A stretch of DNA of 59,034 nucleotides, counting the filler. It is 3 parts of 3 records of this genome, joined end to end, with 100 filler letters (N's around TTAATTAATTAA, not from the genome) between each part and the next. Parts side by side here need not be neighbours in the genome. Positions count along the whole stretch, not along the records: positions 19,283 to 50,339 come from SRR20825019_92; 2 more parts are not named here. The stretch is one strand, 5' to 3'. Of this stretch, positions 6,046 to 50,439 are shown piece after piece. Position 1 is the first letter of the stretch, and every line of letters begins with the position of its first letter. The notes beneath the pieces are model-generated. The model had not been told where the DNA came from and ran no database searches. It was given only the letters and a program-made list of their open reading frames with translations. A program made the translations under genes and the position numbers.

Positions 6046-6073
6046 GACAAAATACCGCTCATAAGGCGTCTGG

Positions 6074-16699: not shown

Positions 16700-16815
16700 C
16701 CGATGAGAAGTCATTGTGCGGCGAATTAGTCACAACATTTGCATGGGCACTGATTGTTCTAAAGCTTGACTGACTTGGAATACTTGTCTTTGTCTGTCTG
16801 CTAATTTAACGCACT

Positions 16816-19182: not shown

Positions 19183-19282
19183 NNNNNNNNNNNNNNNNNN
19201 NNNNNNNNNNNNNNNNNNNNNNNNNNTTAATTAATTAANNNNNNNNNNNNNNNNNNNNNNNNNNNNNNNNNNNNNNNNNNNN
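19183..19282. other. Artificial contig-joining spacer
   Basis: 44 N + TTAATTAATTAA (19227-19238, stops in all six frames) + 44 N. Confidence 0.98.
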
Positions 19283-19510
19283 TTGCTTCTAAATATAGAA
19301 ATAATGAATCATGGATCGGCCGCTACTCGAGACCGGACTGAGCACTCCTACAACGCGTTGTGACTGTGCAGAGCAACAACAACAAAAACAATGAATTTAG
19401 TGGTGCATGCGATCGAAGACGCCCGCCCTCCCGGCCGCTGCCGTGCCCAGGAGTGCCAGGGACCTGACCCGGGGAGGAAGCTGGAACGACACCTACGGAA
19501 AGGCGCGATG

Positions 19511-28500: not shown

Positions 28501-31500
28501 AATTCCGAAGGTTTAAAGTCACCCATGATAGCAGCCACGAGAATATTCCTGTTGGTCGGGTCGGTCTGTTCTCAGGCAAATCAATGCATGTTACCTAGAA
28601 CAACCACGGAACCACAGGTACCTGGTTCCACTCGAAGGATGGTGACTCGATAACCATCTTAATAATGTCGGATTGGCCGTTCTTGATGGCATGGAAGATA
28701 GCCGAGTACCCATCACAGTCCTTCAGATTCAAATTAATGGAAAGTTGATTCTTTTCAGCCTTTTCTAAAATTAGTCGGGCTGACTTGAGTCCGGAGTGGT
28801 CTGCCCTGCATATAGCCATCGACAAGCATGTCCGTTTCGAATTATTTTGAATGTTCAGATCCAAACCCTTCACATCAAGTAGCAGATCCAAGACCTATTC
28901 AATCCAGGATTAAAAGACTGTCCGGGCACATCATGAGAACTCATACCTGGTGGTGAGAGCGCTTGATGGCGTGGAATATGATGGTATCTCCATCGTCATT
29001 CTTTTGGTTGGGGTCGATGTCGCGTTCCTCAGCGATGACCTGTGGATGTATAAGCGTTGTTCGATAATGTTCGTCGAAGGCTGGCCACACACCTTTTTCA
29101 AGATGAGTTGGAGTACAAACTGATCGTCGGGCCGCTTGCTTGTAACAGCATGAAGAACATTGATTCCTGCGTTATTAATAGCGCTACACTTTGCACCTCG
29201 CTCTATAAGGTAGCTTATCATGGCCTAAAAATGGCTATGAGAACTATGGAGATAGACCTAGCACCTATGACCTACGTTGTTGCTCTTGCGAATTGCATGA
29301 TGGAGAGCACTACCGAACTCATCCATGTGGTCCAACTTCACTTCTAGATCGTTTTTCCGACAAGTCTCCACAAATAGCTTCATAGCTGCCGGATCATCCT
29401 TGGCTGTGGCAATAGCGTTAACCACCCAAGATTGTGTGCGTGTCGGCATGACATACCCGCAGCGAGAATCACACAGGTTTGCCCTTTTTCGTTGATAACA
29501 TTAGGATTGATCCCAGGGGATTCCAGCAGCGTATGAATGATGACATTTGTTTCTGAAAAGAGGCCAGTCAGCAAGCTTCTATCTCCAGTGCATGGCGTTT
29601 TACCAGGCGCGGAGAGGATGGCAAGGTGCAATGCGGCGCATGACCTCTCCTTTGTCTCGGGGTCTACCCGTCGCTCGTTGAGATGTATGCCCTCAAACTG
29701 AATGAGCAGGCGTATCACTTCTAACAAGTTGTAGCGCACGGCCATCTGCAAGACTGTGAAACCGTCTCGGAAAGGAGCGTTGACGGACAAATTGCCTTGA
29801 CTCTCCAAGCATCTTTCTAGTAGGGTGATCGCGCACTGGTGACCCCTAAACACAAGTATTAGTGGGCGGTTGCGATTGGCCGCGGTCATTCGTACTTTCT
29901 ATCAAACTTGTTGCCTTGCTTTTGGTTCACCGATGCCAGGATGCATTGCTGTAACAGTGTAACACTTTCTTCGTCTCGGCAATTCACGTCACACTTGAAG
30001 TCCAGCATTAAGTCAAGGATAGCCGCTGAGGTACGAGTTACTAAATCAAATGAAAAACAGAACGCTCATGCTACACATACCCGATCGCGCATCGACTACC
30101 GAATGCAATAGCGGCCGACCTTCGCTAGACTTGACATCTATGTCTAGAGATAACTTAAGGGCGATGGCCTGCTCCAACATGAAGATGGCAACCTTGGGAT
30201 CACGCTGCACATTGAGATAAGTATTCATCTGAGCGGAAACGCCTCCACTCTTCAGCCCTCACATGCGATACGGCCAGCTGAAGCGCGGTCTGTGCACCCT
30301 CGACCGACCTCCACACTGTTCTGAATTTCTTCTTCTTCTTGGATGTTGACCGCACTGTCTGAGACGGCACTTGCGAAGAAATAGCCTGAAAGCCACAGGG
30401 TGAGCATCATCAAAGCATAAACGCCTCCGTACGTACCGCCTGATCGCCCGCACTTCCCTCCTTCTCAGGAGGGGCAGTCGCTCCAGTCATCGAATTCGCC
30501 GCATCGCTGGCTTCAGCAGACGGGGCATCGTCTTTGACTTCACCTTCAGCCTTTGGCGCACCATTGTCCACCTCGGGCGTTTCCGCGGGTCTAGTCTCAT
30601 TGCTCTCGTTAATCTCCTCACTGACCTCGGGGGCCCCACCAACTTCTTCCGGTCCGGTCGTCAAAGTTTGCTCCCGAGAAGTCGCGACAGGTGCTTCCTC
30701 GATTCTACGAGAGGAAGTTTCGGACATATTTGATTCCTGCGGCAAACTCGAAGGTATCCCGTTGTCATCATCGGCATCGTTATTATCCTTGATGGTGACT
30801 TTCACGCGAGGGGCACGAATATTCAATTCAAGACCTGGGAACTGCATCATGGCTTGCATGACGTCCATTTGCATGTTCTCCACGGCTCTGAAAAAAGCAG
30901 GGAACCCATGTTCATCATGAACATTAATGTCCAAGGCCAAGTTGTTTTCGCGAGACTGATAGAACTATTACAACATGGAAACTCAATCCTTCCCGAGGTT
31001 CATACCTTGTTCACCAATGCCATTGCAACAAGAGGTTTCGTCTTGAACGCTTGAATGCTAAAAATAAGGGGGTGCATGTCGCCTTTGCTGGTCATTGAAC
31101 TGTTCACATCGATGACATCGTAATTCAGGAGAGCCGCAACAGTTTCATGTTGGTTGAACTCAAGAGCACGATGATATACATTCACCCCTTGTTCGTCCTA
31201 ATCAAAATAATAAGAACGGTGACAATTCGCAACTGACAAAGCACATACTTCAACAAGAACGTCCAGGTTAGTGTTGTAGGTGTGAGAATATTGTATCAAT
31301 GCAACCGCCGCCCGAGGATCTCTGTGATGCTTTCGGAGCGCGTAATGTATACACGCAGTCTTCGTTCCGGGCATCCGCTCGTTCACTTTGACCCCGGGAA
31401 TAGCGCAGATGTGTTGAACAGCGTCGCCCAGGTTGAGTTCGATCGCACGATGGAGAGGCATGAAACCTTCGAAGTCCTTCTTGTTGATGTCAAGGGCCTT

Positions 31501-34500
31501 GTTATAAGTCTTTGCGTTCTAGTCATAGTCAGAGTAATTTCAGCGACGTCTGAGACAACGCATTGGCATCAAATACCTCAAGAATAGCTACGGCCGAGCG
31601 CCGATCTTGTACTAGAGCAGCCTCCAAAGGAGTCCGCCCTTTCCCATCGGTCACAGCCAAGTCTGTCGTTGAGCACTGCACCAATAATCTCACTATCTCA
31701 TCCTGCTGTTTATCGATGGCTGTGTGAAGAACCTGGACGAAAAGAAGAAATGAGCCTCCGTCACATGTTTGGCCAGAAATGCAATACCGTCTGTTTCATA
31801 ATATCGGGCTTATCGGTGATGAGAGGGAGGTCGTGCTCTAGGGATTTCTGTAGAATCACATGGGCCATGTCAAGCCTGCCATTCGCGACGGCATCGTGGA
31901 GCGGGGTGCGAAACTGCGCGTTTTGATAGTTGAAATCGACAAGATCTGCGAGTCCGGTCAGAACCTACACATTTACATACGCCACACCATATACGTTTGC
32001 AATCCAAAAGGACTCGGACCATGTCACTATCGTGCGCGGCAACCGCGATTTGGAAGGGAGTCCGACCATCCTACACAAACAAGGAATGTCAAAATCGATA
32101 TGAATCTAGGCAACTTCTTGGAGCCATACCGAGTCCTTTCCGGTAACCTGGTCTTGGTGTAGCTGACCTTTCATGATACGCTTCACTATCACTTCCAATA
32201 CGCCCACATATCCACCCTGGATTGACACGTCAGAGCAGAATCTAGACGATATCTTGAGTACAATACCTTGACAGCCGCGAGTACAGGGCCGTCTCCATCC
32301 TCGTTAACCACATTAACATCTGAAATATACTCGAGCATTCGATCCAATGCCTCAGGATCATGGACAGAGTCGTTGATCACATCGAATATAACAGAGTTAG
32401 CCTGTTCTTCCATTTCTCCATCATTGAATTTCCCATCTTCATCACGATATTGACTGAATTCGTCCGCTACATCCCGTGTTATTGATGCAGTGGATGATGT
32501 ATCACTCATGTCGTCCGACATCATCTTCTCAACCTCCTGTAATATACGTTTACACAGAATCAAAGTTACGCAAGACACGCTCATCATACCATCGACAGAT
32601 CCATCATAGACCGCGAGACATTATCCTTCTTGAGGCTGCCTAAGCTTGCAGGAATAATATCCTTCACGTCGACAGGTTCCGCCTCGCTATTTCCAGACAA
32701 CTGCGAAGTGCGCGCATCTCGATCGGTTCGCACGTCAATGCAGTCTAAATGCCCCCCTGCTTGGTACAAAACATCCTGGCATTTCAGACATCTCAGTTTC
32801 AACGCCAGTCGAAACGGAGTAAGGCCTTCAAACGAGTCACCAGCTCCTGGAGCTGGAGCGCGACCCCAAACCGCAGTGGCAGGCCCGGCCTTCACAGTTA
32901 CATCGTTTGGGCGATACTTGCATAGCAGCCGGAGAAGTTCAAGAGAGTCCGGATGCTCGTTATCTTCCGAGCACAACCTCACCACAAAATGGAAACATGT
33001 GCCAACCATCTCGTCGACGCATATGGAAGCACCGCCAGCCAGCAAATACTTGACACACACAGCCTGTCTTGCTGTTGGACAGAAGCTTTAGGCATTTTCG
33101 AAGGTCCATTCAGTACACCTACCTGCCAATGCCAACATCAGCGGAGTATAGCTGTTCTTGTCGCGGCCATTGATCAACTTGTCATCGGTCTTCATCCCTT
33201 TTTCCTTAGCGTGGCTTCTCTTCAAAAAACTTCTCACCCAGAGTTTATGCCCGTTCCGTGCCGCGGCATGGAGCGGTGTTCGGCCAATTGCATCCGTCTG
33301 GTACAATAGGGCGACGCTGCCAGATGCCAAAAGCGTGTCGCCAGCAGCGTAGCTCCCAGCACGCACGGCATACAGCAGCGGTGAAACACCCTGGTGGTTA
33401 GTAAGCTTTGGACTGGCTTTGGCGGCAAGCAAAGTGCTGATGATTTCAACATGATAATCGTAAAGCATTCGAGCCCCAAGCCGGGTCAACATATTTGCTC
33501 TGTCCACTCCAGGCATTCTCAAATTGATATTTCCCTTGAAAATACTTAGGTGCGTTTAGATTCGGTAATTGTGATCACTTACAGGTTGGCAGAATGAGCA
33601 TTCTGTGCACCGACAGCATGACGGCGGCGACGATTTGTTGGAGCAGTCCGGGCACATACAGTCGCAGTATCCCTAGAGGGGCCTTAGTTTACGCAGAGCC
33701 GACACATGGATTATCATGTCACGCACCTGACCAGCAATCAGCATTACAGTGTCGCCGTTCTTATTAGTGGCATTGAGTTTCGGAACCAGGCCTGAGGAAA
33801 TCATCCGTACAACATTCTCGACTTGTGCGTGATATCCTCGCTGTGAGGCCAGGTGCAAAAGAGTGTTGCCGTCAGGTGTTCGGGCGTCAATGCGCTTCTC
33901 GCTTATGGCCATATTCACGAGATGCTAAAAGGGTTTGAATAACTCAGAAATATAAAAACGACGTCATAATATACGCACCGTTACACAATCTTCGTAATCG
34001 TGGGCAACGATAGGACTGAGCATCGCGCCTCGCTGTTGTATGATCACGAAGACATCTATGGGCACTCCTCGGCCGGGATTCGATTCATCGCAAATTATCG
34101 AAACATGGTTCTGTAAAGATGGCACCAGCTGTACATGTATTAGCAATGTCAGAAGTCCATCAATAATCACAACTGTACCTCATAGAGACACATGCTGATC
34201 GATTTGGTGGGACTATGGCCTGCTTTCACCACAACGCCGTCAACCTCTATATATTGCAAGTGGTAGGGAATCTTCTGTTCTTTTTTGATCATCACCATCA
34301 GTTCGCCCAGAGATGTCACGCTGGACACTGTCATTTTCATATGAATATTCCTCGGACGAGAGAGTACACTCATTACAGCTGGAGGATGTTCATGCATAGG
34401 TATTCCCTCAGCAGCAGCGCCAGAAATTCCTGTGTCCAGCATTTCCACGGGCTCTGAAGTAAGGGCTCTGACAACCTCGATGAGACCCCTTTCAGCAGCA

Positions 34501-37500
34501 TGCTTCAAAGCAAGCTGCACACTCGCCACCACAAATGGAAATTCTTCGATAATTTTGGTAGCAAGTGCGGAATTGCCGTTGTGGATAGCTAACAAAAGAC
34601 TTGCTCTCACGTCAGAATGAATATCATACTCCGATTCCATTTTCTCTTTTGTGCTCCTAGAGGACAGGTTAGCACTTTGAAATGGATTCATGATTGATTG
34701 ATTGATTGATTGAGCAACAGACCTGTTGTTAATACATTCCACAACTGCAGAAAACATGCTCGGAGGCGCCCCACTCATAGCCAGCGCCTGTTATTTTGAA
34801 CTCTTTCAGATCCAACTACACCAACACATGGAAATCTTAATACCTGCATCGGTGACACACCCTTCTTATTCGATATAACTACTGTAACCGCGCATTCCGG
34901 TAGAGCAAGAACTCTCTCTGCAATATCCCAATGACGACCCAATATCGCAGCCACTGCAAAAAGTGAGTTCGTAAAATTCAAAGCAAAAAAGCAAACCTAC
35001 TCAGAATGGTGTTCCCGGCTAGATCCCATACATCTTCATATCTGACTCCAAGCACCTTATCAATGATAAATTCGACAAGAGAAGCGTGCCCTCGCCCCGC
35101 TGCAAGAACAATGCTAGGAGAACGCTGGGGACCATTGGGTGTGTAAAAGTAGTGATCTATCCACGGCTCCCCCTTGAGGACGGGGTTAGGACTAGATTTT
35201 CGAGCCCTAAGTTCGCTTACCATTTCGCTTCCAGACTCTTCCTCAATAGCACCATTGCTCTCATCGTCTTCAAAATCAGATACGTTTCGACTAGTAAGCT
35301 GGCTAGCTTCGCCTTCGATGCCCTTGCCTAGTGCATCCCTCGTACTGGTATCCTCAATCTTGGATAATGCCTGCAAGATCTCGCTCTTGACAGTGTCGGC
35401 GACAGAAGGTCTCCTCTCAGATACCGCCTGGGATAATGGTCCGCTAATTGAAGCTCGCCGGGATCCAACTGCGCTCCCTTGTGGAGACTGCGAGCTCACG
35501 GTATTAGATATTGCCACCAGAAAGACCAACAGATAACCTACAGCCTGAACGGAGATGGGACGAGAGGATGTAGCAGTCATCTTGAAAAGAGGTGATTCGG
35601 ATACCTCATCCAGAACTTCAGAACATATGACTGCGATGTCGTCATAGCCATTCAGGCAGCAGTAACCAATAGGGGTGAACATATCCGCATCGGGAGATAC
35701 CAGCATGGCCTTCACGTTGCCGTGCTTATGAATCTAAAGCTAAAGTGAATATCGCCGGCGTCCTGCAAGAACATGAAACTAACCTTTTTCAGAAGAAACT
35801 TCAGGATCAATACTCGCTCTTTCTTATTGCCAGTACCCTTGCACAACATGTGAAAAATATTCTGGCCTTCATGGTTGGATCTTTTCAAGCTGGCGTCCCT
35901 ATCCAGCAGCTCCCTTACTGCCGCATTATTGCCAGCATATAGTGCTAGTAGAAGTGCTGAGTTTCCGAAGCGGTCAACAGATTCGACGGATCTAAAGTTT
36001 TTCATCACTGATGTGAGGAGGTGGGAAGCATATGCCAAAGATGTGGAGAGCACACAATTGTGCAAAACTGTTCGGCGATAGTAGTTCCGCTTTTTGATGT
36101 GAGGCATATTGTCTGTCTAAATTCAGAAATATGTACCAAGACTAAGCACTGCCAACTCACCAAGAAGGACCTCAATGCAATCTTTCTTTGTCGCTTCGCT
36201 GCCGGCGAAGGCGTAATTCAGAGGGACATCTCCGAGCCCATCCTCAAGGAGAGGATTCGCGCCAGCTACTAGTAAAGATTTTACGCCATCCTTATTTCCA
36301 AGCCATGAGCACAAGTGAAGAGGCCGTGGCTTGAGCTGAAACAAGCGCCGCATGGCTTCAAGTTGGCGATACTGATCGTGCGACATCATATCGGCGAGCT
36401 GTACCCTGGTGGCATTGGTTAGAAGGCGGCACCACTGCGGCGGTGGAACGCACCTGTCGACATATTCAATCCCGTCAATATCATTTTCAAAGTCTTCGAA
36501 CGCATCCTCATCGCCGTGCCTGATCGGCTTGTTCTGCCCCAAGACAAACTCAGGGACGCTATTCGATCTGGTAATACGATTTTTCCCGGAGTCCGAATCG
36601 GTTTCATCAATAGCACTTCCCTTGCTCGCAATCCTATTCAAGTCGTCCTCGCTCTCATTCAGTTCTGCATCGATCAACTTTTGTTTTCGGCGGTTGCGTT
36701 CCATCGCCTCTCGTTCTTCTTCTTCGCGCTTCGCCCGTTCCCTACAAAGTACGCCAATAAGACCCCATGTGGAATGATCCGAAGGTCCATCCCATACTTT
36801 TCCTCAGTTGCCTGCCTGATGCTTTCTTCTTCAACAAACTCTTTGTCGATTCCTTCTTCTTGTGCCTCCCCATCGGCTGAATCCTCCTTGCTAATTTCCG
36901 GCTGTGGTGCTGAGGAAAACGCCCCTCTTAGGAAGCGAATGGTATTGTATGCAGAGTTCAGCTTCCCGCGATATCCCTAGGAGATGACAAGTTTGAGAAT
37001 TGTCCCGCGAGCGTGCTATGCGTTTACCTGCGCGTTGGAATCCCGACCCTTAGACAGCCGCTTCAAAATGCGAATTCCCGTCTCTTCCTTCCTATTGTTG
37101 TTATCTTCATCACAGTAATCTTCGATGTCCACTCCAACCTGGAACAAACGGTTGGAAAAATATCAAAGACTTCTCGTGGATGGTACCGACCTGATGATTG
37201 AAGTCGGCGGTAGTGCAATGCTGCAGGAAAATCATCATCAGCTCCGCAACCTCGTATTCGCTCGTGACAACCCCTTGGTATAGCTTGTTGTACACGAGGC
37301 AAGCATAATGGATCGGAGCAAGACCATCATTATTCAACAGCCGAAGGTTTACGCCTCGGTTTAGGAGCATTTCCACAAGGGCAGCATTGCAAGTCTTCAT
37401 TGCTAGAGCAGCACCTTAGCGATCTCTAGAAACAAAAGTGACAACGGTACTATTACCACAATGGAGGGGAGTATTTCCATCATCACTTCTGGCATCAAAG

Positions 37501-38342
37501 TCAACTCCTGGACACGATTCAATAAAATATTTCGCAGTTTTCGAAGCCCCAATCCGAATGGCGTAATTAAGTGCAGGCTCCTCCTCAGGGATATTTCTGC
37601 TCTCTATAGGAGTCAAGGGGACATAGTGTTGTCTTTGAGTCAGCGTCAGATACACAGCCGGATTGACAAGAGGTGCAGCAGCCGTTGTAATTGTCACAAA
37701 TGACTGCGACATTCGGAGCCGCTTGTGGGCAACCTACGCAACTTGGTTTACAAACTACCATCCCAAGATAAGGTGGCCTTACCAGAGCACGCGCGAACAT
37801 TGGTGATGAAGGATCCATCGCGCCGACATGAGTGTACATCTCCACTGACCGAAAATCATCTTGCATGATGGCATCAGCAAAGTCCCGAACTATTTTTTCC
37901 TGAGAGATTGCCGTGCGGGTTAGCGCGACATCACCCAGTCAGACCCTTGCACACAATGGTCCAACCTGATCCGTCAAATAGTCAAAGTCGTCCCGGATCC
38001 ATTTTGGGGATCTCCAGTTATTTGGGATCATGCTGCCCTTTCTCTTGACTACAGACTCGCCCTCCTCCTCACCTTCATCCACATCCTTCTTCTCAGAAGT
38101 CTGAAAGAAACCTTAGACTCATTTCGACCTCACCACGCACTCCCTAATGCGAACCCACCTCGTCCCCTTCGCTAATATCAGAGTCTCCTCCCTCAACCGG
38201 TGCAGCGTCGAAGTCACCCATTTCCATTGAAGGGTTTGGCTCCATCGTGGACCTGTGACACCAAGTGAGATCTAGGCTACTAGATTTAAAACCACTCTTA
38301 CGACTGCTCAGACCCCGGCACCGGCAGCGTACTCGCGATCAT
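19511..38342 (-). CDS. Giant spliced ankyrin-repeat protein (eukaryotic; ~65-70 introns; roughly 5,100 aa)
   Basis: Consecutive minus-strand ORF fragments join in frame across GT..AG introns, e.g. 38301-38253, 38158-38101, 37965-37900, 37782-37734, 37456-37403 (restores GNTPLHC|AMKT), 33726-33673, 33582-33535, 21347-21296, 21146-21101, 20029-19992, 19800-19749. Dozens of GxTxLHxA-type repeats. The start codon and the in-frame introns are the least certain parts. Confidence 0.85.
34691..34710. repeat. (TGAT)5 microsatellite inside a 66-nt intron
   Basis: tgattgattgattgattgat within predicted intron 34722-34657. Confidence 0.85.
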
Positions 38343-39370
38343 GTCAACTGAAGCCGTTTCAGACTGTATTTCCGACGTAACAGGCAACGGGGTCATAGGT
38401 GTATTTCGGCCGGACGGAGCATCCGACACATCTTTTGAACTAGCAGGACGGCTGGACAACACAGTTATTTTCACAAAACCACAATTTGACACCTCAACTA
38501 CCTCAGTGAAGCTGGACTATCTCTCCCGGACATTCCTAGACTATGTCCCCAAATAAACCCGTCTCGTGTTTACCCGTAAGATAAGATCTAGGCCAGGGCA
38601 TACTTTATTGCCAGATAGGGGTCCCCGAAAACTCGGATGAGCCTCCTGGAAGGATCATGTGAGAGCGTGGTGCGCTCATGCAACGGACGGGGTAATTTTG
38701 CGCGGCTTTCCGGCCGCGGCTACAACACAGAGGGACGATGGCATACCAGAAGGCGGAGCCTCTACAACCTACCCACGGCACCGTTCTGAAAGTTCCAATG
38801 AACCCTACCCCGCCAAGGCTGGTGTCCGGTCGCTCGCGAGCTGGACCCCGTCCTCTCAGCACTGGTACATTGCAGGGGACAAGAAGGAACGACAACCGAT
38901 TATGACTTGAACCCGCCCCGGGCCGGCCGGCGGTGCGGTCGGTCAGCCTGGTGCGGAGGTTGCACCGGTCAGGTTCTTGCCCGCGTCCTCCCTCGGGGCG
39001 ATAGCGGTTCAATTTGTGTGGAGTCTAAACTTCCATTCTCTCGGGGGAAAATAGTGACAAAAAGCGGTTGTAACTTAAATCAGCACAGATGAGATGAACC
39101 GAATGATCTCTATGATCTGATGAGCTGTACCCCTTGCCGTGATTGCCTGCTTCCACCTGTATGGATACCTTCGTCAACGCCTTTCCACCAACACCATTGT
39201 TCATGCTCAGTGCTGCCAGCCCTCACCTCCCAGGCCTCGGCTGGGCATCAATCGGCCCGGCCTCAGTGTCACTGGTGTTTCAGTAAGTCAGTGGAAGCCA
39301 GGCCGGCTGGCCAAGGGGCAACCGAGGCCGCGAACTGTGGTGCCATGCCCGCCGCCGCGAAGTAGACTGA

Positions 39371-39416
39371 GTGCCATTCGAGAGAGCGGCCGGGTGCCAT
39401 TCGAGAGAGCGGCCGG
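39371..39416. repeat. Perfect 23-bp tandem duplication in divergent intergenic region
   Basis: GTGCCATTCGAGAGAGCGGCCGG at 39371-39393 and 39394-39416. Confidence 0.92.
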
Positions 39417-39672
39417 CGGGGTGCGGCCCCCTTCCGCTTGATCCTGAACCCGTGTCTCACGCAGTCAGCCACCCGACCACCCACTGTCACTGGTATTGTT
39501 GCTTTCGCAACGACTGAACTTGCCCTTTTTCAGCCCACACGCGAAAAACACGCACCCCCGAAACCTGAGCTCCAGCGTCGTCAATGCCACAGAACCCTCA
39601 AGCTAACCCTGTCTATCAATCAAGAGGAACCATAAAGATGCCTACCTCACCATACTCTGAAAATAAGTTGGT

Positions 39673-41992
39673 ATGCAGCCTTATCCAGAGGCAAGAAACC
39701 AACAAGACGATATGACTAGGCGGCGGCTGTCGAGCATGGAGGGAGGGCGTACCCCTACTACACCTCACCTCAACACCCCAAATACTTTAGGAAACCCATT
39801 ATTGGATTCCTCCGAATATAGTGACGGTGCTCCCGCTCCTCGCAAGAAGGTTATGTCACGGTCCGGGTGTCATCCTGTTGTCACGACTTCTTGTGTGTTG
39901 ATGGCACTTGTTGTGGGTTGCGTAGTTGGTATGTTTGCGTTGATAGTGAGTTTTGTTGGTGGCCTTCTAACATTCCGTCTTGTTAGGTGCTGCTGCCTAT
40001 GGTGGTTACTCATTTTTATACCCCGCATCTCCCTCGCTGCACTCTGGCGGGGGTGACTCCGACGACGGAATATTGGCTCCAGAGCTCATCCCGAGACTTG
40101 TGGAGGTTGGAATCAATAGCATCACCCTTGACTTTGATAGGTATCCTCGTGCTCTTCAATACACTGCTGAGTGCACAGAACTCGAGTCCAAGAAGACTTT
40201 CACTATGGATTCGTCCACCTCCAAGGTCACAGTTACCGGCCTGGAAGCAAGCACGCTTTACGAATGCGTATACCGTGTCACTGTACCGGAGGGAGTGTCG
40301 CCGGACTCACCCTCGGTGAGGTACCCTACCCTAGCAGCCACCGTGCCTGGAAAGAGCGCTGGCGTGTGGGCTGTGGAGCCAACCACGGCTGATTTGATTA
40401 CACTCGACTGGGACGAGACCGAGAATGGTGGCTCCGATATCACTGAGTATGAGCTGCTCTACAGTGAGAGCAAGGCAGACAATACCGTGAAAGACTGCTA
40501 TAAGACTGGTCCTGGTTGCTCGGTCTGTGATGCTCCATATGAAGAGGTTTGTGTATGATAGTGTGGTGTTGTACGACGATGCCTTACGCGTATTTTAGGA
40601 ATCCTCTGAAACCTTCTTTACTTTAGGAGGTCATTGCAAAGACGTTCCGTTTACAGGATGCCCAAATTTCAACCTCAAGTTGGTGTGCTATGACTTCCAG
40701 GTGTGTTGCTTACTTGTGATAAGTGATATAAGCTAACGAATTCACTGCCTTAATAGTGTTGCCGAGATGTTCCTCAGGCAAACGAAGGCCAAGTTTTTGA
40801 GTCTCTTTACAAGGGCAAGGACAGTCATTTTACCCACAAGGGACTTCCAGCTGGCCACAAGTATGCATACAAAGTGTTGGCAAGAAATGAGGTCGGCGAT
40901 GGTTTACCCAGTCTTGCCACTCCCGCGTTTACATCTACCCCCGATGCCAAGGTCCCTGACCGTGCTGATGCCCCACGTATCAAGGACTCTACTCCCATCA
41001 GCTTGCGGTTGGCCTGGGATATACCCGAGCACAATGGTGCCATGATTGTAAAGGCCAAGCTACTCATGCATGATGGAGACAAGACGTCTGTAGCCTGCCA
41101 AGATGAACGCCACCTCACGAAGAGTTGTACAGTTGAAAATCTGAAGCCGGCAACCAAGTACACCTTCAGTGTGCAGGTGAAGAATGAGAAGGGATGGTCA
41201 CCTGAAGGAACCAAGGCTGAGTTGGAGACACCAGAGGCTGGTGCCCCGCCCACATGCAGTCCTGTTGAGTACGCTAACTCAGGGCCCGACTGGATCGATG
41301 TTAAACTCAAGGCCGCTCCTCACTACGATAAGACGATAGAACAGAAGTACGAGCTCGAGTATAAGCAAAACCGTGCAACTGAGTATACCAAGGTGAACGG
41401 TGCCATTGACATTGAGGATGAAGGAGAACTTGTCTATCGTGTTGGTTCGTTGGTTCACAACAAACATTACAACTTCCGAGTTCGTGCTGTGAACTCCAAA
41501 GGTTCAGGTTCGTGGAGTGAAGTTATTGAAGACTGCTGTGACACCCAGTTGTCTGGCAAATGTAATGCTAAGGACCGCAAGATAATGACGCACAGTGAGA
41601 AGGCTGAATACGAATATAGTGGTATGTATGATCGACATGATGCGAGGTACACACATTCATTTATATGTGCAGACATCGCCCATGATTGCGGCAAGTCGAA
41701 TCTTGGCCGCTCTGAAGCAACTGCGGCCTGTATCCGCAGCCAAGTATCAGGCTTCAGTGCAGGCTGTGCATCGTGCTTCGGCGAGGTATTATCCTTCATG
41801 AGAATGTATGATACGAGTACTCACTGGTTTGTGTAGGTGGCCTCGTGTGGCAAAAGCAAGTGTTGGAGCAAGTGCTTCCCTAATGATATGTCACAGGGCT
41901 GCCGCCAGTGCTACCAAGACAATTGCCGGCCATCGCTTGCGGAATGTGCCGGCATAGCCATGGAGGATCTCCCTCGCGAGCGCCCATTGTAG
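39673..41992 (+). CDS. Spliced single-pass membrane protein with four fibronectin type III domains and Cys-rich modules (683 aa)
   Basis: Exons 39673-39928, 39987-40546, 40599-40700, 40757-41621, 41673-41785, 41837-41992 total 2052 nt with consistent phases; introns are 58, 52, 56, 51 and 51 nt GT-AG. FN3 motifs GLEASTLYE, GLPAGHKYAYKVLARNEVG, NLKPATKYTFSVQVKN, YNFRVRAVNSKG. Confidence 0.88.
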
Positions 41993-42105
41993 GATGGATA
42001 CAAATGTACAATTAAAGGATTGCAATGCAGAGAAAGAGTGTTTACTGGGTGCTAATCATCAATAATGATTTTTCGAAACAGCCTGGTAGAATTGCCAAGC
42101 CTACT

Positions 42106-45100
42106 TCATGACAGTACCACATCCTCTACGGTGATCGATCCCTTCCTCTCTTTCAATTCCTGGAAAAACGCGAGATTCTCCTTAGTATTACTCAAAAGTG
42201 TATTTGCCGCGTCAGGATTGCGACTGTGAAGGAGACTACACAGGACTTCGACCTGCGGCAACCCAATGAAAGACATAAATCCGACTTGGCATTCCGCAAC
42301 AGCAGGTTTTTCACGATCCATGAAGGGGCTAACTGGCATGCCATAAGCCTTTTCGACATCACCCTGGGTCCAGAATTCCCTGATGACACGGAGGACCCAG
42401 CGAAGATAAATCTTCAGAGGACGGGCAGGATTCGAAACGTCGGCAACCTTGATGATAATTTTCATAAGAAGCACTCGGTCAATATCCACGGCACTAATAC
42501 CTCTGCTCTGCGCTTCCTTAACCGCATTCAGGACGGAGTTGTGCTTGGATAAGTCCGTACTCAAGACTACCTGGGTAATCAAATCCTTCATGCGCGCTTG
42601 ATCCTTCTCAGAGAGGTGAGTGAGGAAAGCGCAATGCTCGTCTTGCATGACGTGAAAGGCCTCACAAAGATGATAACATTCCAAGACGCTATCCGGTTCT
42701 CCCCTCTCTTCCGCCAAGTGCAGTAGCTCTGAATTAGTTGCTTTCAGGAATACATTTGTTACAGCAGGATGGCGGAAGTCATGAATGGTCGCCGCTATGA
42801 TCAACGCTAGTTGTTCCAATGGAGTGAAAATCTGCTCCAACTTAAAGGCCGCCATGATGAAATGAACGGCTTGTACAACATCAGCCCCATGTGTGGAGTT
42901 ATGGTAGAAATTCCTCGCAATATATCCATCATTGATCACCACAAGGAAGTTTTGAAGTCTCTCCAGAGGAAGCGCCAGCGTTTCAACAAGGTCCCGAGTG
43001 TTAATGGTGTACCAAGACGCAAAGTAGAGAGGGGCGCCTCGAGATTTCTTGGCTAACTCGAATACATCGAATTCCCACGTTCCAGCATTGTGATACAGAT
43101 ATGGGTTACACTCTGAAGCGTGAGTATTGTAATTAGACCGGACTCGCACATTCGCTCGACAATATTTTGCAGTCTGTTGCATAGATAGCTTAATTTTGCA
43201 GTCCTCGATATACCATGATATAGCCTTATCATTCGGATTACTGGCCTTCAACTTTTCCAAGAGACAGAAAGCATCACCTCGAATCTGTTGAACAGTAAAC
43301 ATCACTGCTTTCTCAAACTCATGCTGATATTCGATCTTCGAAGAGTGATTGATAATAATCTCATAAATGTCAACTGGAATCGTTTTCCCCTTCACTGTAA
43401 CAAGACCAATATGCCTGTGTCGCAAGGCCTGAAGGACTGTCGAATCGATTCGGTTCAATGTGTCGCCTGTGATTAAGATTTCTGCGCCAAACACTTTGGA
43501 CTGACCCTCTAGCCTGGAGGCAGTATTCACCACATCCGATATCACCGTTGAGTCCATTCGTAGAGTCTCGCCAATTGTTCCAAGCACAACTGGCCCTGAA
43601 TTAATGCCAATGCCAACAAGGATGGGGGGCTCGTTCATTTGAGCACGTTGACGATTGAAAGCGGACAATTCGTCAATAATGGCACAAGCAGCCTTCACAG
43701 CATCTGTGGCGTGAGTAGCACTGCTCGGAAATAATGCCATGATACAATCTCCAATATATTTGTCAATGAAGCCTGAGTGCCGTCTGATGATCGGACCAAG
43801 CCGAGACATAACATCGTTCAGAAGATCAAAAACACTGCGCGAGTCGGCCAGCTGCTCCGAAATAGATGTGAAATCCCGAATGTCCAGATAGAAGACAGTC
43901 ATTTCAAGCTCATTCATATCGCCCAGACAAACATCGATAGCGTTCGAGCTTCCCAATAGTCTACAGAACTCGGACGGTACGAAGCGTACGTACGATTCGT
44001 TGACGCTGATCAGCTCTTTGTTCCTCTCTTCCAAAGCCTTCGAGTGTTCTCTCAACTCTGAGTACAGGCGAGCATTGTTCAATACTACAGTCATCTGCGA
44101 AGACAACATGTCCAGCATATGAACGTGGGTTTTTGTGAAAGCATTCTTAAGCACAACATTCTCAACATAAATGATGCCGTGAAGTCTTTTCTGCATAGTC
44201 AGTGGAATGCAAGCTACACTCCCGTCACGGGTACGACTAGATAAACCGGCCCCATAAACAGGCTCCGTTTTCTTCAATACCATTTCAACAACTTTCATGT
44301 CAATGTCACGAAACTCCTGCAAAGACACATCAGGTTTGAACATTTCTCCTCTGCCATTTGTGCATATGTTCACAAACAGTTTAGATGGAGCTGCAAGCAC
44401 ATCACGGCGAGTCGCAGTCTGGACTCCTTCCACTCCCATAGTGTTTGTGTTTGCGAGAGCGAATACTACTGTCTGCGCACCAGAAAACTTGGAAACAACA
44501 TCAACAAGGCTAACCAGCAACTTATCGAAGTCAATTTCCGATGAAATAAGTTTGCTGGCTTGGGCCACAGCTTGGCTGTCGAAAGAGGCGGCTTTTCCTC
44601 CTTTTGTAGTGTCAACAGTTCCTGTAGCAACTGTGGTGTCTCCTTCTGTATAACCCTCCGGTGATGAAGTCGAACTCCCGCTGCCCGCCGACTTCATAAT
44701 GTGCGACGCGTTCTCACCAGCAAGGACGGATACAACAGCCATTGAACCCCACATACACCCATACTCTACGAAGGTATGGACAACTGCCGACGCAATAGAT
44801 TCCAGGCTTGATTTGTTCAAGGCCTCGAACAACAATCCAGACGCAAGCACCACGATGCTTGGTTGTGAATTGACGCGAGCATTACTTATCGCTGAATCTA
44901 GAATCGGAATAGCATTGTGCCAAGAATTCTTCAAAATCAGCAGGTGTGCCTGCACGACTAGCAACCGACTACGATATAGTCGCGGTTGGTGCGCAGCGAA
45001 TACCTTGAGCTTCTCCATCAAATGCTCGATTTTCTTGTTATGCCTGTCAATCTCATCTAGAACACCATCATTTTGTTCTTGTAAATTGAGAAATCTAATT

Positions 45101-48100
45101 CTCTCTATGAGAATTAATGGCGCTATGCAGACATATTCGATATAGGGTATCAGACCAGTAGAAAGGTACAGAGACGATTCAGGAATCTTCGTGAGGATCT
45201 GGTATGCTTCTTCATACTGCTGGAGTAGGGTATAAGCCAACGCATAGTATATGTGTGATATAGAAACAAAAAAGAATGGATGGTCAGGTGATATTTGCGC
45301 TTCTTCATCGGACAGCCAAGAGCTGACTTGCCCGCTTTCTAGCAGGGAGAGTGCCCCATACACTGCCGTGAGCGACCGATTATACAATGTCAACTTGCGC
45401 CGACGTGACAGCTCAATGTAACCTCGAAGCTTTGAGGCCACAATTGGAATCGGACTCCCTCCCTGTGTGAGACTCCAGCATTCCTGAATGGCTGCAAACA
45501 ATGCATAGGAGTGATCCGAGAGGGACATAGCTATCAACCTTCCCTCATTGAAGTAACTGCTAATATCCTTGGGATCCATAACCCATTGGCAGGTCATACC
45601 CACATGAACGTTAACCCGCGCCGTCGATATGCCCTTGGCATCTTGGGAATCACTCATTTGCAAAAGAGCGTGCTTAGCCAGCTCTCCCCCCAGTTTCAAT
45701 TCATTGTAGTACGCAGCCATAACAAATCCAAAGACCGCCAAGCCCTCTGCTGTTCTTGGATTCACACCATACACCATTGCTCTAGAGGTGATTGTGGTCG
45801 CTGCCCATGTGTAGAGACCACGGTTTCCTACAAAATAAGCTAATGAAATCAAATGCATCAATAGACCGCAGATAGTTTCCTCTTCCCAGGCAATATTGAG
45901 ACTCCATTTGCTAGTAAGGGTAGAGAAATCGGTGGTTTCACACAAGAGATTCTTGGTTCTAGACACAATCTTCTCAACGTCATCAGGGGAAGGACTTATA
46001 GTTGCAGGCATTCCAAAGACCTCGTTAAGGCAGTCGATAATGCAATCTATCGCTTGCCTTGGTGCGTTTTGATGAAGGAGTCGCCTTGTCTTCTCACCAT
46101 AAGCCCAAGCAATATCGCTGTACTTCGTGCAATGCACCATCACCATCGAAAAATAGTCCATGTAAAGTTCAGAATCATGGTGGTCAACCTCTACTTCCAA
46201 GAGTGCTTTCAGCACTAATAATTCAAGGTTCTCGCTATCCGAGGCAATATTGCAATTAGAAAAGAATGTCAGAGCGTGCTTTTCCATGTGGGACATCCAA
46301 TTCTTCCGCTCGCCGTTCGCTACAACTTCAAAAATCCGAGATTCGATCCCCTGAAGGTAATGGTTTCGATCCTTTCGGTTCAGCACTGCATCAACTACCG
46401 ACACTTGAAACAGAAAGAAGAAAGAACAATATGCATGCTGTCGAGCCCGGACATTGTCGCTAGACTTGAATTGACGGAAAAAGTGCATATTCAAACGAGT
46501 ATATACTTTCAATTCCCCAAGAATCAACTCCAGTTTTCCCTTAAAATCAATATCGTTGACTCCCAATTCCCGTGACTTTGCGTCGTGTACCAGTCGAACA
46601 AAATAGTCAAGACTGTCGTTCGCCAGCTCACATACAGTCCCACCATACTTCAAAAACATTTCCCCTTCGACAATATCTTCGTCAAATACGTTAGGTGCCT
46701 CAATAGGCGTCGCAGGGTCAAAATCCTTTTGGCAAATAGCAAAGAGGGTGCGCATAACAGAGACTCGAGTAACCCGTTGACCTCTAAAAGATACACTTCT
46801 TCTCTCGATTTCGTCACGGGCACTCTTCTTACTAAACTCTACAACCGTATCGTTGAACCTAGCACTGCTTGATAGAGACAGTATTCTGTTTTCGTTCATA
46901 CTCCCCACTAATTGGCTAACATCCTCATAACACATTCCCATCACCAGAGCGAGTATCCACACCGTAGAAGATCCACCGACCCAATGTAGCGCAATCAAAA
47001 ACTCTAGATCGCTATCACGTAAGTTTGTTAACTTCTGATTCATGTCTAACATTAAGTCATCATATCCTTTCCAAATGAAGGCACCCTTATCAAAAGAGAA
47101 GCGAATAACGCCACTGAAGAACAAGGCCCGAACGACTTTTTCCATTCCCAAGGGATTCCCAGTGCAGGTTTTGTGAACTCTCTCGGCTAGTTGGCGAACA
47201 AGCTGAATATTTTCATGAAAACATGTTGATATGTACTTCTCGATGTCCCCGATGTCAAGTGGATGCATCTTGATTTTCTTCAGAGATTGCCCCGATGCCA
47301 TCTCCACAACACGTTCAATATGGGGATTGACTTCACTACACTTAGATTGAATCGACAGGAACACAAGACAATTCACATTCTTCTCCATCAGATTCGATAA
47401 TTGAGCCGCAAGGAGATCGCTCATTTGGTGGGCATCATCAACAACAATTACCAATCTGCTGCCACGCAACCCGTTGGCCAAGTACTCTAGAAGTTTCTTC
47501 ATTTCGTCATCCAAATCACTTTCAAAGGAATGCATGTCGTCTAGAGCTGAGGTCTCTCGCATTTTTGAGTCCACAGGCTCGAGGCATCCTTCAAAGAAGA
47601 CATCACGATAGTCTGGAAATTCCCGCCACACCCTTGTTAGCCTCAACAGAGACAAGTCCTCGCGAAGCGTCATTAATTGCACCATTCCCAATTTCTTCAT
47701 GGACACAGCAATCGCATCAATCAACATTGAATGATGGGTTTTGGCTTCTTTCTCGCAACTGACAGAAACTACAAAATCTCTCGAAAAGCTTCGTTCACAA
47801 TACTTGTTGAGGACCACGGTCTTGCCACACCCTTCATCACCTTCCAAACACACAACACGGGCAGCCACAGCTGGTTGGCGAAGAAATTCATCGATTTCTG
47901 ATATAGTGTCATCTCTCCCTAGAAAAGTCTGTGTTGGTGCAAATTCTCCATTCACGCCTCCGTCCATCGCAATCTCGGATATCGGGCCCATGTTAAACAA
48001 ATCGTTTCTAAGAGAGACTTCTGATATATCTGAACCATTGGCTATTCCTTTCAAAAACTCTGGAAATAAGGATTGTGACACCTTCCCTGCAGGTCCCAAA

Positions 48101-49463
48101 AATGCGCGGAATAGTGCACACATAGACAAAAACCGGTCATCGGGATTCTTTGATATCATCTTGGCAATGATATTCCCTATCAATGGCGGCACAGCAGTAT
48201 TCAAGGTACAGACATTCGGCGGAACCGTTGCGAGGTGGCCGTATATCACGGACTCTTGGTTTGCAGAATCCTGGAAAGGAGTAGTACCTGTCAGCAGGAA
48301 AAAAAATGTAATGCCGAGGCTGTAAATATCAGATTTGATGGATATGGGGGTGTCCAGCCTCCCTGTACATTCAGGGGACATATAAAGCGGTGTTCCCACA
48401 TTTGTGGACCTCGACTGGGCGGATTCAGCGAGCAACGAAGCTATCCCAAAGTCTAGGATGGAAATAGACATTCGCCGAAGACCGGGCCTCAACTGCATTC
48501 CATCCCCATTGTCGAAATACTCCACGTTCACGGCCACATTGTCTGGTTTCATATCACGATGAAGAATATTGCATTCGTGAACATGACCCAACGAATGGAT
48601 AAGCTGACAGGCTACTACAATAAATTCTGCGACATCAAGGGGGCCAGTATTGCCAACCAATGTGGCCAGTGTCTCAGACCCTTCGTCAGAAACTACCATT
48701 GCGGCCTCAGTGCTACCCAACTCAACAAACCCAAGCCCTTTGGGGCACCTGACTACAGTAGACTCCAGTGTCGACAAAATGCTCCACTCGTGTTCAATGG
48801 CACTCTTAGGGCCGGCCTTGCACACAGCAGGGACACCTGTGTTCGCGTGCTTGCATCGATAGACAACCCCATGTGAATTCCGTTTCAGCTCGTAAACAAT
48901 AGTATATTCCAAAGTCTTCAGGGCGTATTGCAGATTCGTCATTCCCTGAGTGAATACCAAGGTTAAAACCAGAAACATACACAGAACACAAACACAACAA
49001 AATTTCGTACATCCATTTCGTAGTAAACAGCCGAGTTAGATTTGCTTTTCGAGCGAAATTTACGTGAGAAGATACTTCTATCTGAGAAGACGCTTTTCTC
49101 TTGGGTGTCCGACGAAGACTCCATTGAGACTATGGCGGTGGCTGGTGACCTGGGCTGAAAGTCAAAGAAATATGGTCAGCGTTGTCGCCCAGTTGTTAGC
49201 AGGCACAAGCCTACCAACGCATGCAAGGAAAACGGTGTTTCGAAAGTAACGCCGCGTGGTGTACCGCGAGGACTGTGTATTCCGGTTGTGTTTTCCGCTT
49301 CGCTATTGCTTGAATTCTTTCTATTTTTTTCATTGAGGGACAGCGCCCGGGAAGCCTTCTTTGGGCCTGGAAGGATCCGCCCGCTGGAACCTTGTGTCCC
49401 GACCCATGAGGTATGGCGCACAGACTTAGGAAGACTATATATACTATCGCCCTCGTTACTCAT
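42106..49463 (-). CDS. Ser/Thr kinase - STAND/AAA ATPase - GAF - class III adenylate cyclase - class I phosphodiesterase fusion (2410 aa, 3 exons)
   Basis: Exons 49463-49215, 49154-49011 and 48945-42106; introns 49214-49155 (60 nt) and 49010-48946 (65 nt), both phase 0. Motifs: HRDMKPDN/DFG/YMSPE; GDEGCGKT/VIVVDD/GNP; ISSEID..GIIYVEN..NARLY; DIRDFT/DKYIGD/VNTASRLE; YHNSTHGAD/HDFRHPAVTN/ADVSNP/QVGF. Confidence 0.92.
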
Positions 49464-49660
49464 GCTATGCGAGGGTCACTTTCGACAATACAACCAATTT
49501 CTGATATAAGTACACAAATATATGCACATCAAAACTGGCAGAACGATGACGTTTTCGTTGCAGGCTGCGCAAGAGAAGTTAACCCTGCAACGGGACCTAG
49601 CCAACAAACACAAGATGAAAGGCTCTAAAGCCGCCCAATTAGCGGAAACAACGTCAAAGT

Positions 49661-49682
49661 CTCTCTCTCTCTCTCTCTCTCT
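49661..49682. repeat. (CT)11 microsatellite
   Basis: Pure CT run ~200 bp upstream of the fusion gene start. Confidence 0.92.
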
Positions 49683-50339
49683 ATCCGTTCCCCCCACACC
49701 CACCCCTCTCAGTCTCTTGAGCTCGATGTGGCCCCAATACACTTCGCCATACATGGGCAGCCATGCTTCGAAAAGGAGATGGCTAACAAGAAGAACTGGG
49801 CAATATCCTCTCGACTGGCGCGGATACCGTTTGACCATTTGCCACAACTGCGTTCCCCTGCGTTGAGGCGACTGACGTTGGAGACTTGTCCTGGTTGAGC
49901 CCACAAGCCTCTCACTGATCGACTGAATTCGGCGGTCCCGGGCAGCCGGCCTGTGGGGGCTGTGAGGGCATGATGGTGTGTTCATGGTGCGGCCCGGCCG
50001 CACGCCGCACAGTCGAAATTCAGTGCCCAGCGGCAGGCCGAATGGGACCGAAGGCCCCCTGGCTCGGACTGAGCCGCGAAGCAGCAACGCATCGGAGATA
50101 ACAACCCCACTGACCCCATCCGAAATCGTCAAAACCCGAGGAGGCACAGGGGACGGTAGTAGACCACAGAGCCAATGAGACAATTCAAGGGTTTTTATAA
50201 TATGTCTATATTTAGAATAATGTAGGAAATACCACATCTTCAAAATATAGTTCTGGATTGATCTCGGGATGAAGTCAGTATTTGTATACCAATGTTAACA
50301 CAAATGATATGTTGTTCATGTAATTGTGCACATGATACC

Positions 50340-50439
50340 NNNNNNNNNNNNNNNNNNNNNNNNNNNNNNNNNNNNNNNNNNNNTTAATTAATTAANNNNN
50401 NNNNNNNNNNNNNNNNNNNNNNNNNNNNNNNNNNNNNNN
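50340..50439. other. Artificial contig-joining spacer
   Basis: 44 N + TTAATTAATTAA (50384-50395) + 44 N. Confidence 0.98.

Follow-up and report, generated by a model that had tools for sequence, protein, structure and literature searches.

An uninterrupted 6,840-nt exon on an intron-dense eukaryotic contig, encoding a probable chimera of a bacterial-type sensor-cyclase and a eukaryote-type phosphodiesterase

This work concerns one gene, called here the long gene, carried by a eukaryotic contig within a stretch of DNA of 59,034 nt (the window). Its body is a single exon of 6,840 nt on the minus strand. In order, this exon encodes a Ser/Thr protein kinase, a STAND NTPase, a helical region, a GAF domain, a class III nucleotidyl cyclase and, at the C-terminal end, a class I phosphodiesterase (PDE) catalytic domain. 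No credible intron was found inside the exon, whereas the two other genes of the contig are interrupted every few hundred nucleotides. The reading that we favour, with a probability of about 0.6, is that a whole bacterial kinase-STAND-GAF-adenylate cyclase gene was transferred into a eukaryote, acquired a PDE catalytic region by fusion at the 3' end and has gained essentially no introns since. Positions of all features are collected in Table 1.

The window consists of three unrelated contigs placed end to end and is not one molecule. Artificial spacers of 100 nt (44 N, then TTAATTAATTAA, then 44 N) occupy positions 19183-19282 and 50340-50439, and any feature seeming to cross them is an artefact. 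The long open reading frame (ORF) and both genes used for comparison lie on the middle contig, so the comparison of introns made below is valid. The bin itself is a mix of at least three organisms, with the eukaryotic contig contaminating a prokaryotic bin; inference across the bin is therefore unsafe, and a search for PDE paralogues within it would mislead.

On the minus strand, the frame covering 42106-49035 (2,309 codons) is stop-free. The exon is preceded by an AG acceptor at 48947-48946, opens with GGA and the ATG at 48942 and continues through to the stop codon. It was the 6,840-bp intronless exon that the original prediction, made from the sequence alone, had put forward; the frame is indeed open and the length is exactly as claimed. 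The accompanying statement that all catalytic domains, including the eukaryote-type PDE, share one unbroken frame is likewise confirmed by the Pfam matches and by the open frame.

Introns were counted with a splice-aware Viterbi model in which stop-free exons are scored by codon usage and introns, delimited by GT..AG, by a length term and by donor and acceptor weight matrices, after iterative training on the two other genes of the contig. The model places 64 introns in a giant ankyrin-repeat gene and five in an fn3-repeat gene, in agreement with the counts given earlier (~65-70 in 18.8 kb and 5 in 2.3 kb). Modelled introns on the contig measure 46-66 nt, with a median of 52 nt. The ankyrin exons have a median of 164 nt and the introns between them are very uniform in length; even on an intron-minimising path, 59 introns are still required to keep the ankyrin frame open. 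Taken together, the 17,502 coding nt of the neighbours are interrupted by 69 introns, or one per 254 nt, and their largest exon is 1,059 nt. At this density, the 6,840-nt exon should hold ~27 introns (Poisson P ~2e-12). The intron deficit of the long gene is real and far beyond chance.

An intron hidden in an open frame must be a multiple of three in length and stop-free. When the model was run with the codon usage of the ORF itself, it called one weak site, 45003-44950; codon-shuffled ORFs gave a mean of 0.375 sites under the same setting, with at least one site in 11 of 40 shuffles. Four weak sites were called with the codon usage of the neighbours (48133-48087, 48081-48030, 45155-45105 and again 45003-44950), where 40 shuffles averaged 0.75 sites and never gave more than 3. 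Alignment with ten bacterial homologues showed nine insertions of at least 10 residues specific to the long-exon protein. A single candidate intron, of 48 nt (46398-46351) and lying in an insertion of 33 residues, is compatible with homology and has a score in the intron range among these nine. It scores -1.8; true introns (n = 69) score between -4.2 and 9.3 (median 2.5), and 6 of them lie at or below -1.8. No insertion able to hold a hidden intron was found in the PDE part upon comparison with eight eukaryotic PDEs. The long exon contains no credible intron, and at most this one weak candidate.

The other sites were rejected individually. Residues 1345-1362, encoded by 45003-44950, match a conserved part of the bacterial homologue P0004 in an ungapped alignment, and residues 1294-1311, encoded by 45155-45105, are matched in the bacterial homologue. 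Excision of 48133-48087 would remove the C-terminal end of the kinase, which is aligned to a homologue, and its excision together with 48081-48030 would leave an exon of 5 nt in between. Two further candidates, 44373-44317 and 48531-48493, were ruled out by homology, score or size.

Transcript-like cover was obtained from a public run, X1 (share 0.07), whose kind is not on record as RNA. The fn3 gene is matched by an X1 contig of 2,108 nt (depth 108) that, once the stated cut offsets are taken into account, skips exactly the five modelled GT..AG introns. Its loose ends resemble what we take to be a template-switch oligo and a transposase adaptor. Because of the five exact skips and the adaptor-like ends, this contig is read as cDNA. 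On the long gene, X1 contigs of low depth are colinear and without joints over 42461-42900, 43111-43331 and 43586-43737; these pieces fall in the cyclase, in the cyclase end with the linker, and in the PDE, and their depth drops from the 3' end inward. No X1 contig was found on the ankyrin gene, on 30340-39010 or on 44347-50339. The pattern fits oligo-dT-primed cDNA from an unspliced 3' part. The letters of X1 depart from those of the window at 7 listed positions, and its fn3 contig does so at 6 in 2.1 kb, which points to another, closely similar strain or allele in the run. The presence in one run of the spliced fn3 contig and of colinear pieces of the long gene supports the linkage of this gene to host genes.

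The encoded domains keep their catalytic motifs. In the kinase, HRD (residues 159-161) and DFG (195-197) are kept while the Gly-loop is degenerate. The STAND domain carries a Walker A motif, GDEGCGKT (399-406), and a Walker B motif, VVDD (531-534). The helical, TPR-like region that follows is colinear with bacterial homologues, a single BLASTP alignment to P0004 running over residues 974-1947. Pfam matches to the GAF domain are weak (~residues 1569-1652), all below gathering scores. For the cyclase, the closest solved structures are bacterial adenylate cyclases (CyaB 3r5g, 5e-29), and alignment to CyaB 3r5g shows the motifs DIRDF, DKYIGD, RMDST and NTASRLE. A metal-binding Asp pair, a Lys/Asp pair specifying adenine and an Asn/Arg pair acting in the transition state are diagnostic of class III adenylate cyclases. 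All three pairs are retained in the long-exon protein, so that ATP is the predicted substrate.

Similarly, the PDE part matches Pfam PDEase_I (PF00233) over residues 2044-2271 with an E-value of 4.7e-65 and 220 bits, for a cut-off of 24.8. Its best solved structure is human PDE4D (8e-59, colinear), followed by PDE7, PDE1 and PDE8. Class I PDEs are diagnosed by an HD-type metal site and an invariant Gln. Here the His/Asp metal motifs (HNxxH, HDxxH and two more Asp) are conserved, as is the Gln in the nucleotide pocket, the invariant columns being H56, H60, D63, H96, D97, H100, D172, D210 and Q261. This part comprises the catalytic domain only and lacks the regulatory regions that typically precede it in PDE4. 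One chain is thus predicted, from its conserved residues, to carry both an adenylate cyclase and a phosphodiesterase of cyclic AMP (cAMP).

Residues 32-1950 are colinear with a bacterial family of Pkinase-AAA_16-GAF-cyclase proteins, from the first to the last residue of the family. A search of 5.8 billion proteins returned 71 matches, the best of which have Pkinase, AAA_16, GAF and cyclase in ~1,750-1,990 residues, and a PDE domain was present in none of the 71. The named family members that were looked up are all bacterial (Planktothrix, Okeania, Spirulinaceae, Leptospirales, Microcoleaceae, Halothece, Phormidium and a deltaproteobacterium). A scan of prokaryote genomes, with one genome per species, gave 610 relatives, of which the best 80 were kept. 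All of these 80 are bacterial and include filamentous cyanobacteria, Chloroflexaceae, Leptospirales, Myxococcota and others; many cover query residues 13-1916 at 28-34% identity. BLASTP to P0004 begins at query residue 44 (subject 7) and ends at query residue 1947 (subject 1819 of 1828), with aligned segments at 44-~500 and 974-1947. In an alignment of 11 rows, identity is 21-25% overall and 40-45% in the GAF-cyclase part. The ATG at 48942 (residue 32) coincides with the start position of the bacterial proteins. When the ESM Atlas was searched with part of the protein, a Pkinase/AAA_16/GAF cluster came first (0.96), and the name assigned to it automatically includes a cyclase domain; most of the matches there carry no taxon.

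The STAND/helical region alone gave no match at E<=0.001 in a word-based search, whose prefilter is probably too coarse at such divergence, and an exact-peptide search found no close relative in metagenome contigs, prokaryote genome contigs or IMG/VR. The gene adjoins spliced host genes on the same contig, and is thus not encoded in a bacterial genome; its tie to the family is one of descent. That all named relatives are bacterial supports horizontal transfer, and residues 32-1950 were most likely acquired from bacteria, as judged by these homologies. The idea of a foreign, intron-free body can be retained for this part, where the bacterial family is present end to end. A recent arrival is not shown, given the long branch described below.

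Every named relative of the PDE part is a eukaryote, with identities of 34-40%. The best matches are from Mastigamoeba, Pigoraptor, Acrasis, Mesostigma, Clastostelium, Ceratiomyxa and Diphylleia, and Guillardia and animal PDE8/3/4 are also among the relatives. The matches are scattered among Amoebozoa, Opisthokonta, Heterolobosea, CRuMs and streptophytes. Since these relatives are eukaryotic while residues 32-1950 are bacterial-type, the long gene is chimeric: a bacterial-type module is joined to a PDE catalytic domain of eukaryotic type, the latter making up the last ~320 residues.

No other cyclase+PDE fusion was found by phmmer with a GAF-cyclase-PDE query against 1.84 billion representative proteins, among the 11 top matches that were checked with Pfam; these carry several cyclase or several PDE domains, never both. 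A fusion of the two would be expected at the top of such a ranking. In metagenome contigs, a scan with PDE motifs found 503 relatives of the PDE. The best 80 of them (L001-L080) show at most 37% identity, so none is an orthologue, and phmmer detected a cyclase at none of these 80 loci. Many of them match the query PDE over ~270-317 residues in their best tblastn segment, and they may derive from metatranscriptome contigs or intron-poor genomes. A scan of IMG/VR with PDE motifs gave 73 pattern matches, none of which was confirmed.

The 5' end of the gene is less clearly delimited. Three gene models score alike: 248.5 with a start at ATG 49463 and two introns, 250.0 with a start at 49124 and one intron, and 246.0 with a start at 48942 and none, all within 4 units. 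The introns preferred by the model are 49214-49155 and 49010-48946, together with the start at ATG 49463. Two introns at the 5' end, as first proposed, are therefore plausible and host-like in length, yet unproven, and the second is better placed at 49010-48946. A donor near 49063 was rejected for this second intron, as it would give a length of ~118 nt, outside the range of 46-66 nt. The related proposal that the gene recruited host 5' exons found no support, as the alternative starts score alike and X1 has no cover there. A (GA)n simple repeat lies upstream of the gene, at 49648-49693.

These data can be accommodated in the following scheme. The host would be an intron-dense microbial eukaryote whose contig was binned together with bacterial ones. 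The first ~1,920 codons of the exon would correspond to a complete bacterial signalling protein taken up whole by horizontal transfer and, its kinase-to-cyclase part being of bacterial origin, this part would never have had spliceosomal introns. The gene would then have gained a eukaryotic promoter, perhaps with 5' exons or introns in the 5' untranslated region, and a PDE4-like catalytic domain alone would have been fused in frame at its 3' end, after a linker of ~43 residues. The gene, expressed at a low level, is intron-free or nearly so, although a host gene spliced five times lies ~110 nt away. A single polypeptide would make and destroy cAMP, with a balance possibly set by the kinase and by signals received through the STAND, helical and GAF regions, as in the bacterial GGDEF-EAL proteins or in CAPE (COMBINED AC with PDE). 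From the long branch, the most economical reading would be that the lineage gained few or no introns since the acquisition. Direct observation covers the exon, the order of its domains, the conserved catalytic residues, the homologies, the introns of the neighbours and the transcript-like cover at low level, whereas the direction and time of the transfer, the mode of PDE addition and the enzymatic behaviour are what we infer in this scheme.

Several observations weigh against it. In a FastTree phylogeny of 20 full-length rows (bacteria and the query), the branch of the query reaches 2.47 changes/site, compared to a median of 0.56. The best identity to a tree row is 25%, and the placement beside other long branches is unreliable, so that the tree points to no donor. 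Descent from an older eukaryotic kinase-GAF protein, for example the group X histidine kinases, would be an alternative. The baseline of intron density comes from two genes, both on one contig; X1 covers ~0.8 kb of the 6.8-kb exon, and its cDNA nature is deduced from its contigs, the run being unrecorded as RNA; and the 48-nt candidate is a possible, if weak, intron. Nor does transfer from a bacterium by itself account for the lack of introns in the PDE part (~1.06 kb): an intron-free stretch of 1,062 nt occurs nowhere in the 17.5 kb of coding sequence of the neighbours, and the Poisson estimate at their density, e^(-1062/254), is ~0.015. Three origins can be envisaged: a processed copy of a PDE may have been captured, the fusion may have joined a last PDE exon of unusual length, or the PDE too may be foreign.

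Base composition and codon usage were also compared with those of the neighbours. The exon has a G+C content (GC) of 0.46 and a G+C content at third codon positions (GC3) of 0.485, both below those of the two neighbours, whose GC3 is 0.547 and 0.542. By domain, GC3 is 0.535 in the PDE, 0.522 in the kinase and 0.45-0.48 in the middle, a difference that we estimate at ~2 standard errors. The correlation of relative synonymous codon usage between the long exon and the ankyrin gene (r = 0.59) is similar to that between the two host genes (0.55). Codon usage is thus mildly different from that of the neighbours and not clearly foreign. As a means of recognising a foreign gene, the comparison with host genes is not decisive. 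Together, the long branch and the host-like codon usage argue against a very recent arrival; alternatively, both could reflect an unsampled donor or fast evolution.

Other histories were considered. An older intron-bearing host gene could have lost all but its extreme 5' introns, by recombination with reverse-transcribed mRNA or as a retrocopy placed behind a host promoter and 5' exons. According to the classic model of 3'-biased intron loss, introns survive at the 5' end, and the arrangement seen here, with up to two candidate introns in the first ~500 nt and then 6.8 kb without any, fits this model; such a history would also account for the intron-free state of the eukaryote-type PDE part. 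We nevertheless regard it as improbable, since the 5' introns are candidates, the ATG at 48942 fits the bacterial start position, and a protein of a bacterial family present end to end needs no intron-bearing stage. Moreover, the longest A-run after the stop codon is 5 in 118 nt, i.e. no remnant of a poly(A) tail, so that the retrocopy contemplated in the original prediction is not substantiated. Old retrocopies lose their poly(A) marks, and this absence is weak evidence. The passage through cDNA that had been suggested by the intronless PDE is equally unsupported. A fusion of five domains that was assembled elsewhere, in a eukaryote with few introns or in a large DNA virus, and arrived in one piece would in turn explain why the entire gene, the PDE included, lacks introns and why its GC and GC3 lie below those of both neighbours. 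Such an arrival seems distinctly improbable to us: the combination of cyclase and PDE was absent from the 11 checked top matches among 1.84 billion proteins and from the 80 metagenomic PDE loci, and no relative was found in IMG/VR nor any close one in metagenome or genome contigs, absences that pertain to limited searches. Two ideas voiced beforehand find no support in the same data. A fusion preceding arrival does not suit a bacterial donor, as the named PDE relatives are eukaryotic and no protein with both cyclase and PDE was among the matches and loci checked, and a viral vector is not borne out by IMG/VR, which gave no relative by exact peptides or PDE motifs.

Least probable of all, and hardly credible, is that the gene is an ordinary one, with several hidden in-frame introns or in a genome where very long exons are usual. 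The baseline of only two neighbours and the partial transcript-like cover leave some room for it, as do the candidate that passes the homology check and the four weak sites called by the neighbour-trained model, a number that exceeds every one of the 40 shuffles. However, three of the four called sites fall in residues aligned to a bacterial homologue, and the pair within 48133-48030 would leave a 5-nt exon. Even if the surviving candidate were an intron, pieces of 2.5, 2.0 and 2.2 kb would be left, each of them roughly double the size of the longest exon in the neighbours. The chance that an intron of ~52 nt is both a multiple of three and stop-free is ~0.14 by our estimate; ~27 hidden introns are therefore untenable. 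Transfer of a complete bacterial gene followed by 3' fusion to a PDE remains the reading that we prefer.

The two neighbouring genes and the flanking contigs presented a few additional features. The ankyrin gene ends at its 3' side near the end of the contig and may be incomplete there; a (CAAT)n simple repeat lies at 34681-34722 inside its region. A divergent region of ~1.2 kb separates it from the fn3 gene and contains, by eye, a direct repeat of ~20 nt, with two copies of a GC-rich unit at ~39370-39425. The fn3 protein, as read from its translation, is hydrophobic over a short region close to its N-terminus and rich in Cys at its C-terminus; the X1 contig shows adaptor-like letters beyond the 5' end of the gene at 39665. 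The fn3 gene and the long gene are convergent, with a gap of ~110 nt.

The contig at 1-19182 is bacterial, with a G+C of about 0.51-0.55 and genes that are uninterrupted and back-to-back. Its Pfam matches include, in a row, AAA_26, methyltransferase, alpha/beta hydrolase, aminotransferase and radical-SAM/BATS proteins, which we take to be a biotin-synthesis cluster, and further UbiA, chorismate lyase, RecG, RelA/SpoT, guanylate kinase, YicC and RNase PH. It also carries two GAF-GGDEF genes, at 6065-7135 and 16810-17841. The gene order is presumably gammaproteobacterial. The contig at 50440-59034, with a G+C of at least 0.6 and long uninterrupted ORFs, is a second bacterial one. Its ORFs encode, from translations alone, putative formate/nitrite-type transporter, fumarylacetoacetate hydrolase-like and glutathione S-transferase-like proteins, as well as a putative cytochrome c, DmpA-like peptidase, short-chain dehydrogenase and aldehyde dehydrogenase.

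Table 1. Features of the middle contig and of the long gene (positions in the window).
Feature	Position	Strand	Details
Eukaryotic middle contig, bearer of the long ORF	19283..50339	.	31,057 nt; spliced genes; bounded by spacers
Uninterrupted exon	42106..48945	-	6,840 nt including stop codon 42108-42106; ATG 48942-48940
Ser/Thr protein kinase	48124..48876	-	Residues 54-304; Pfam Pkinase 1.3e-27
AAA_16 / STAND NTPase	47383..47925	-	Residues 371-551; Pfam 2.3e-10
Helical, TPR-like region between STAND and GAF	44596..47382	-	Colinear with bacterial homologues
GAF domain	44080..44568	-	~Residues 1490-1652; aligned to GAF of bacterial homologues
Class III nucleotidyl cyclase	43384..43905	-	Residues 1711-1884; Pfam 9.9e-17
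Linker	43066..43194	-	~43 residues, from the end of the bacterial family (1947) to the start of PDE homology (1991)
Class I PDE4-like phosphodiesterase catalytic domain	42139..43065	-	Residues 1991-2299; homology to PDE4D
Candidate in-frame intron	46351..46398	-	48 nt, 3n, GT..AG; in a protein-specific insertion of 33 residues
Candidate 5' intron	48946..49010	-	65 nt, GT..AG; model score +2.0
Candidate 5' intron	49155..49214	-	60 nt, GT..AG; model score -2.1; candidate upstream ATG 49463-49461
Giant ankyrin-repeat gene	19532..38512	-	65 modelled exons, 15,591 nt, 5,197 codons, 64 introns
fn3-repeat gene	39665..41995	+	5 introns of 51-58 nt
fn3 introns	39929-39986, 40547-40598, 40701-40756, 41622-41672, 41786-41836	+	Modelled; all skipped by the X1 contig

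If the favoured history holds, a eukaryote would have built a new signalling enzyme by keeping a whole bacterial sensor-cyclase and extending it with a eukaryotic PDE catalytic core, and the product would be a single protein raising and lowering cAMP. The long gene would also provide an internal yardstick for intron dynamics, with a foreign and diverged 6.8 kb left unbroken beside genes that carry an intron per ~250 nt. With sequences from this organism and related ones, the gene could be used to date a halt of intron gain and to test whether short exons are needed for correct splicing in such genomes. More tentatively, and with considerable doubt, we suggest that a protist took a whole bacterial gene and a PDE4-like domain to form a cAMP make-and-break module, reversed in domain order relative to CAPE of plants, that would be the first outside streptophytes. 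Having resided there for long, as its very long branch and host-like codon usage would suggest, and having gained essentially no introns next to genes with four per kb, it would be a marker of halted intron gain and a sign that long exons are tolerated by splicing.

Bacterial gene transfer into protists, and the lack of introns in such genes, are already known. A literature search, run mostly at the level of abstracts, found no description of a kinase-STAND-GAF-cyclase-PDE protein. The architecture and the order of its domains are new, as is the contrast between strong divergence and absent introns. The closest known systems are the bacterial Pkinase-AAA_16(STAND)-TPR-GAF-class III cyclase proteins of ~1,750-1,950 residues, which have the same domain order and are colinear over residues 44-1947; compared to this family, the long-exon protein has an extra C-terminal PDE, a location on a eukaryotic contig and a very long branch. 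Bacterial GGDEF-EAL proteins combine a synthase and a hydrolase of c-di-GMP in one chain. The shared logic would be the synthesis and breakdown of one messenger on a sensor-linked chain; as folds and nucleotide differ, this likeness is an analogy only.

Among eukaryotic proteins, CAPE, which occurs in Marchantia and in further streptophytes whose sperm are motile, is described as having an N-terminal class I PDE and a C-terminal class III cyclase (PMC5159850, PMC8115329, PMC11032487). Like the long-exon protein, it combines an adenylate cyclase of class III with a cAMP phosphodiesterase of class I on a single polypeptide. The order in CAPE is PDE then cyclase, whereas here the cyclase (1711-1884) precedes the PDE (1991-2299) and is itself preceded by kinase, STAND and GAF domains. 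The group X hybrid histidine kinases of fungi and Amoebozoa consist, according to PMC6324907, of a Ser/Thr-kinase-related domain, a GAF domain and a histidine kinase. They share with the long-exon protein a eukaryotic setting, a kinase-like N-terminus and a GAF domain, and differ from it in an output that is a histidine kinase instead of cyclase and PDE. None was present among the 71 matches of the search of 5.8 billion proteins, whose word-based prefilter limits its reach; the Pfam family TPR_CHK1, named after a group X kinase, matches a bacterial relative of the long-exon protein.

Finally, a bacterial alpha-amylase gene that entered the intron-rich Agaricomycotina is reported to have gained many introns soon after its transfer (PMC3584928). 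Compared to that account, the long gene gained none or almost none despite its strong divergence. If our reading is correct, an unbroken gene of 6.8 kb would thus contrast with the rapid intron gain in the basidiomycete amylase gene.

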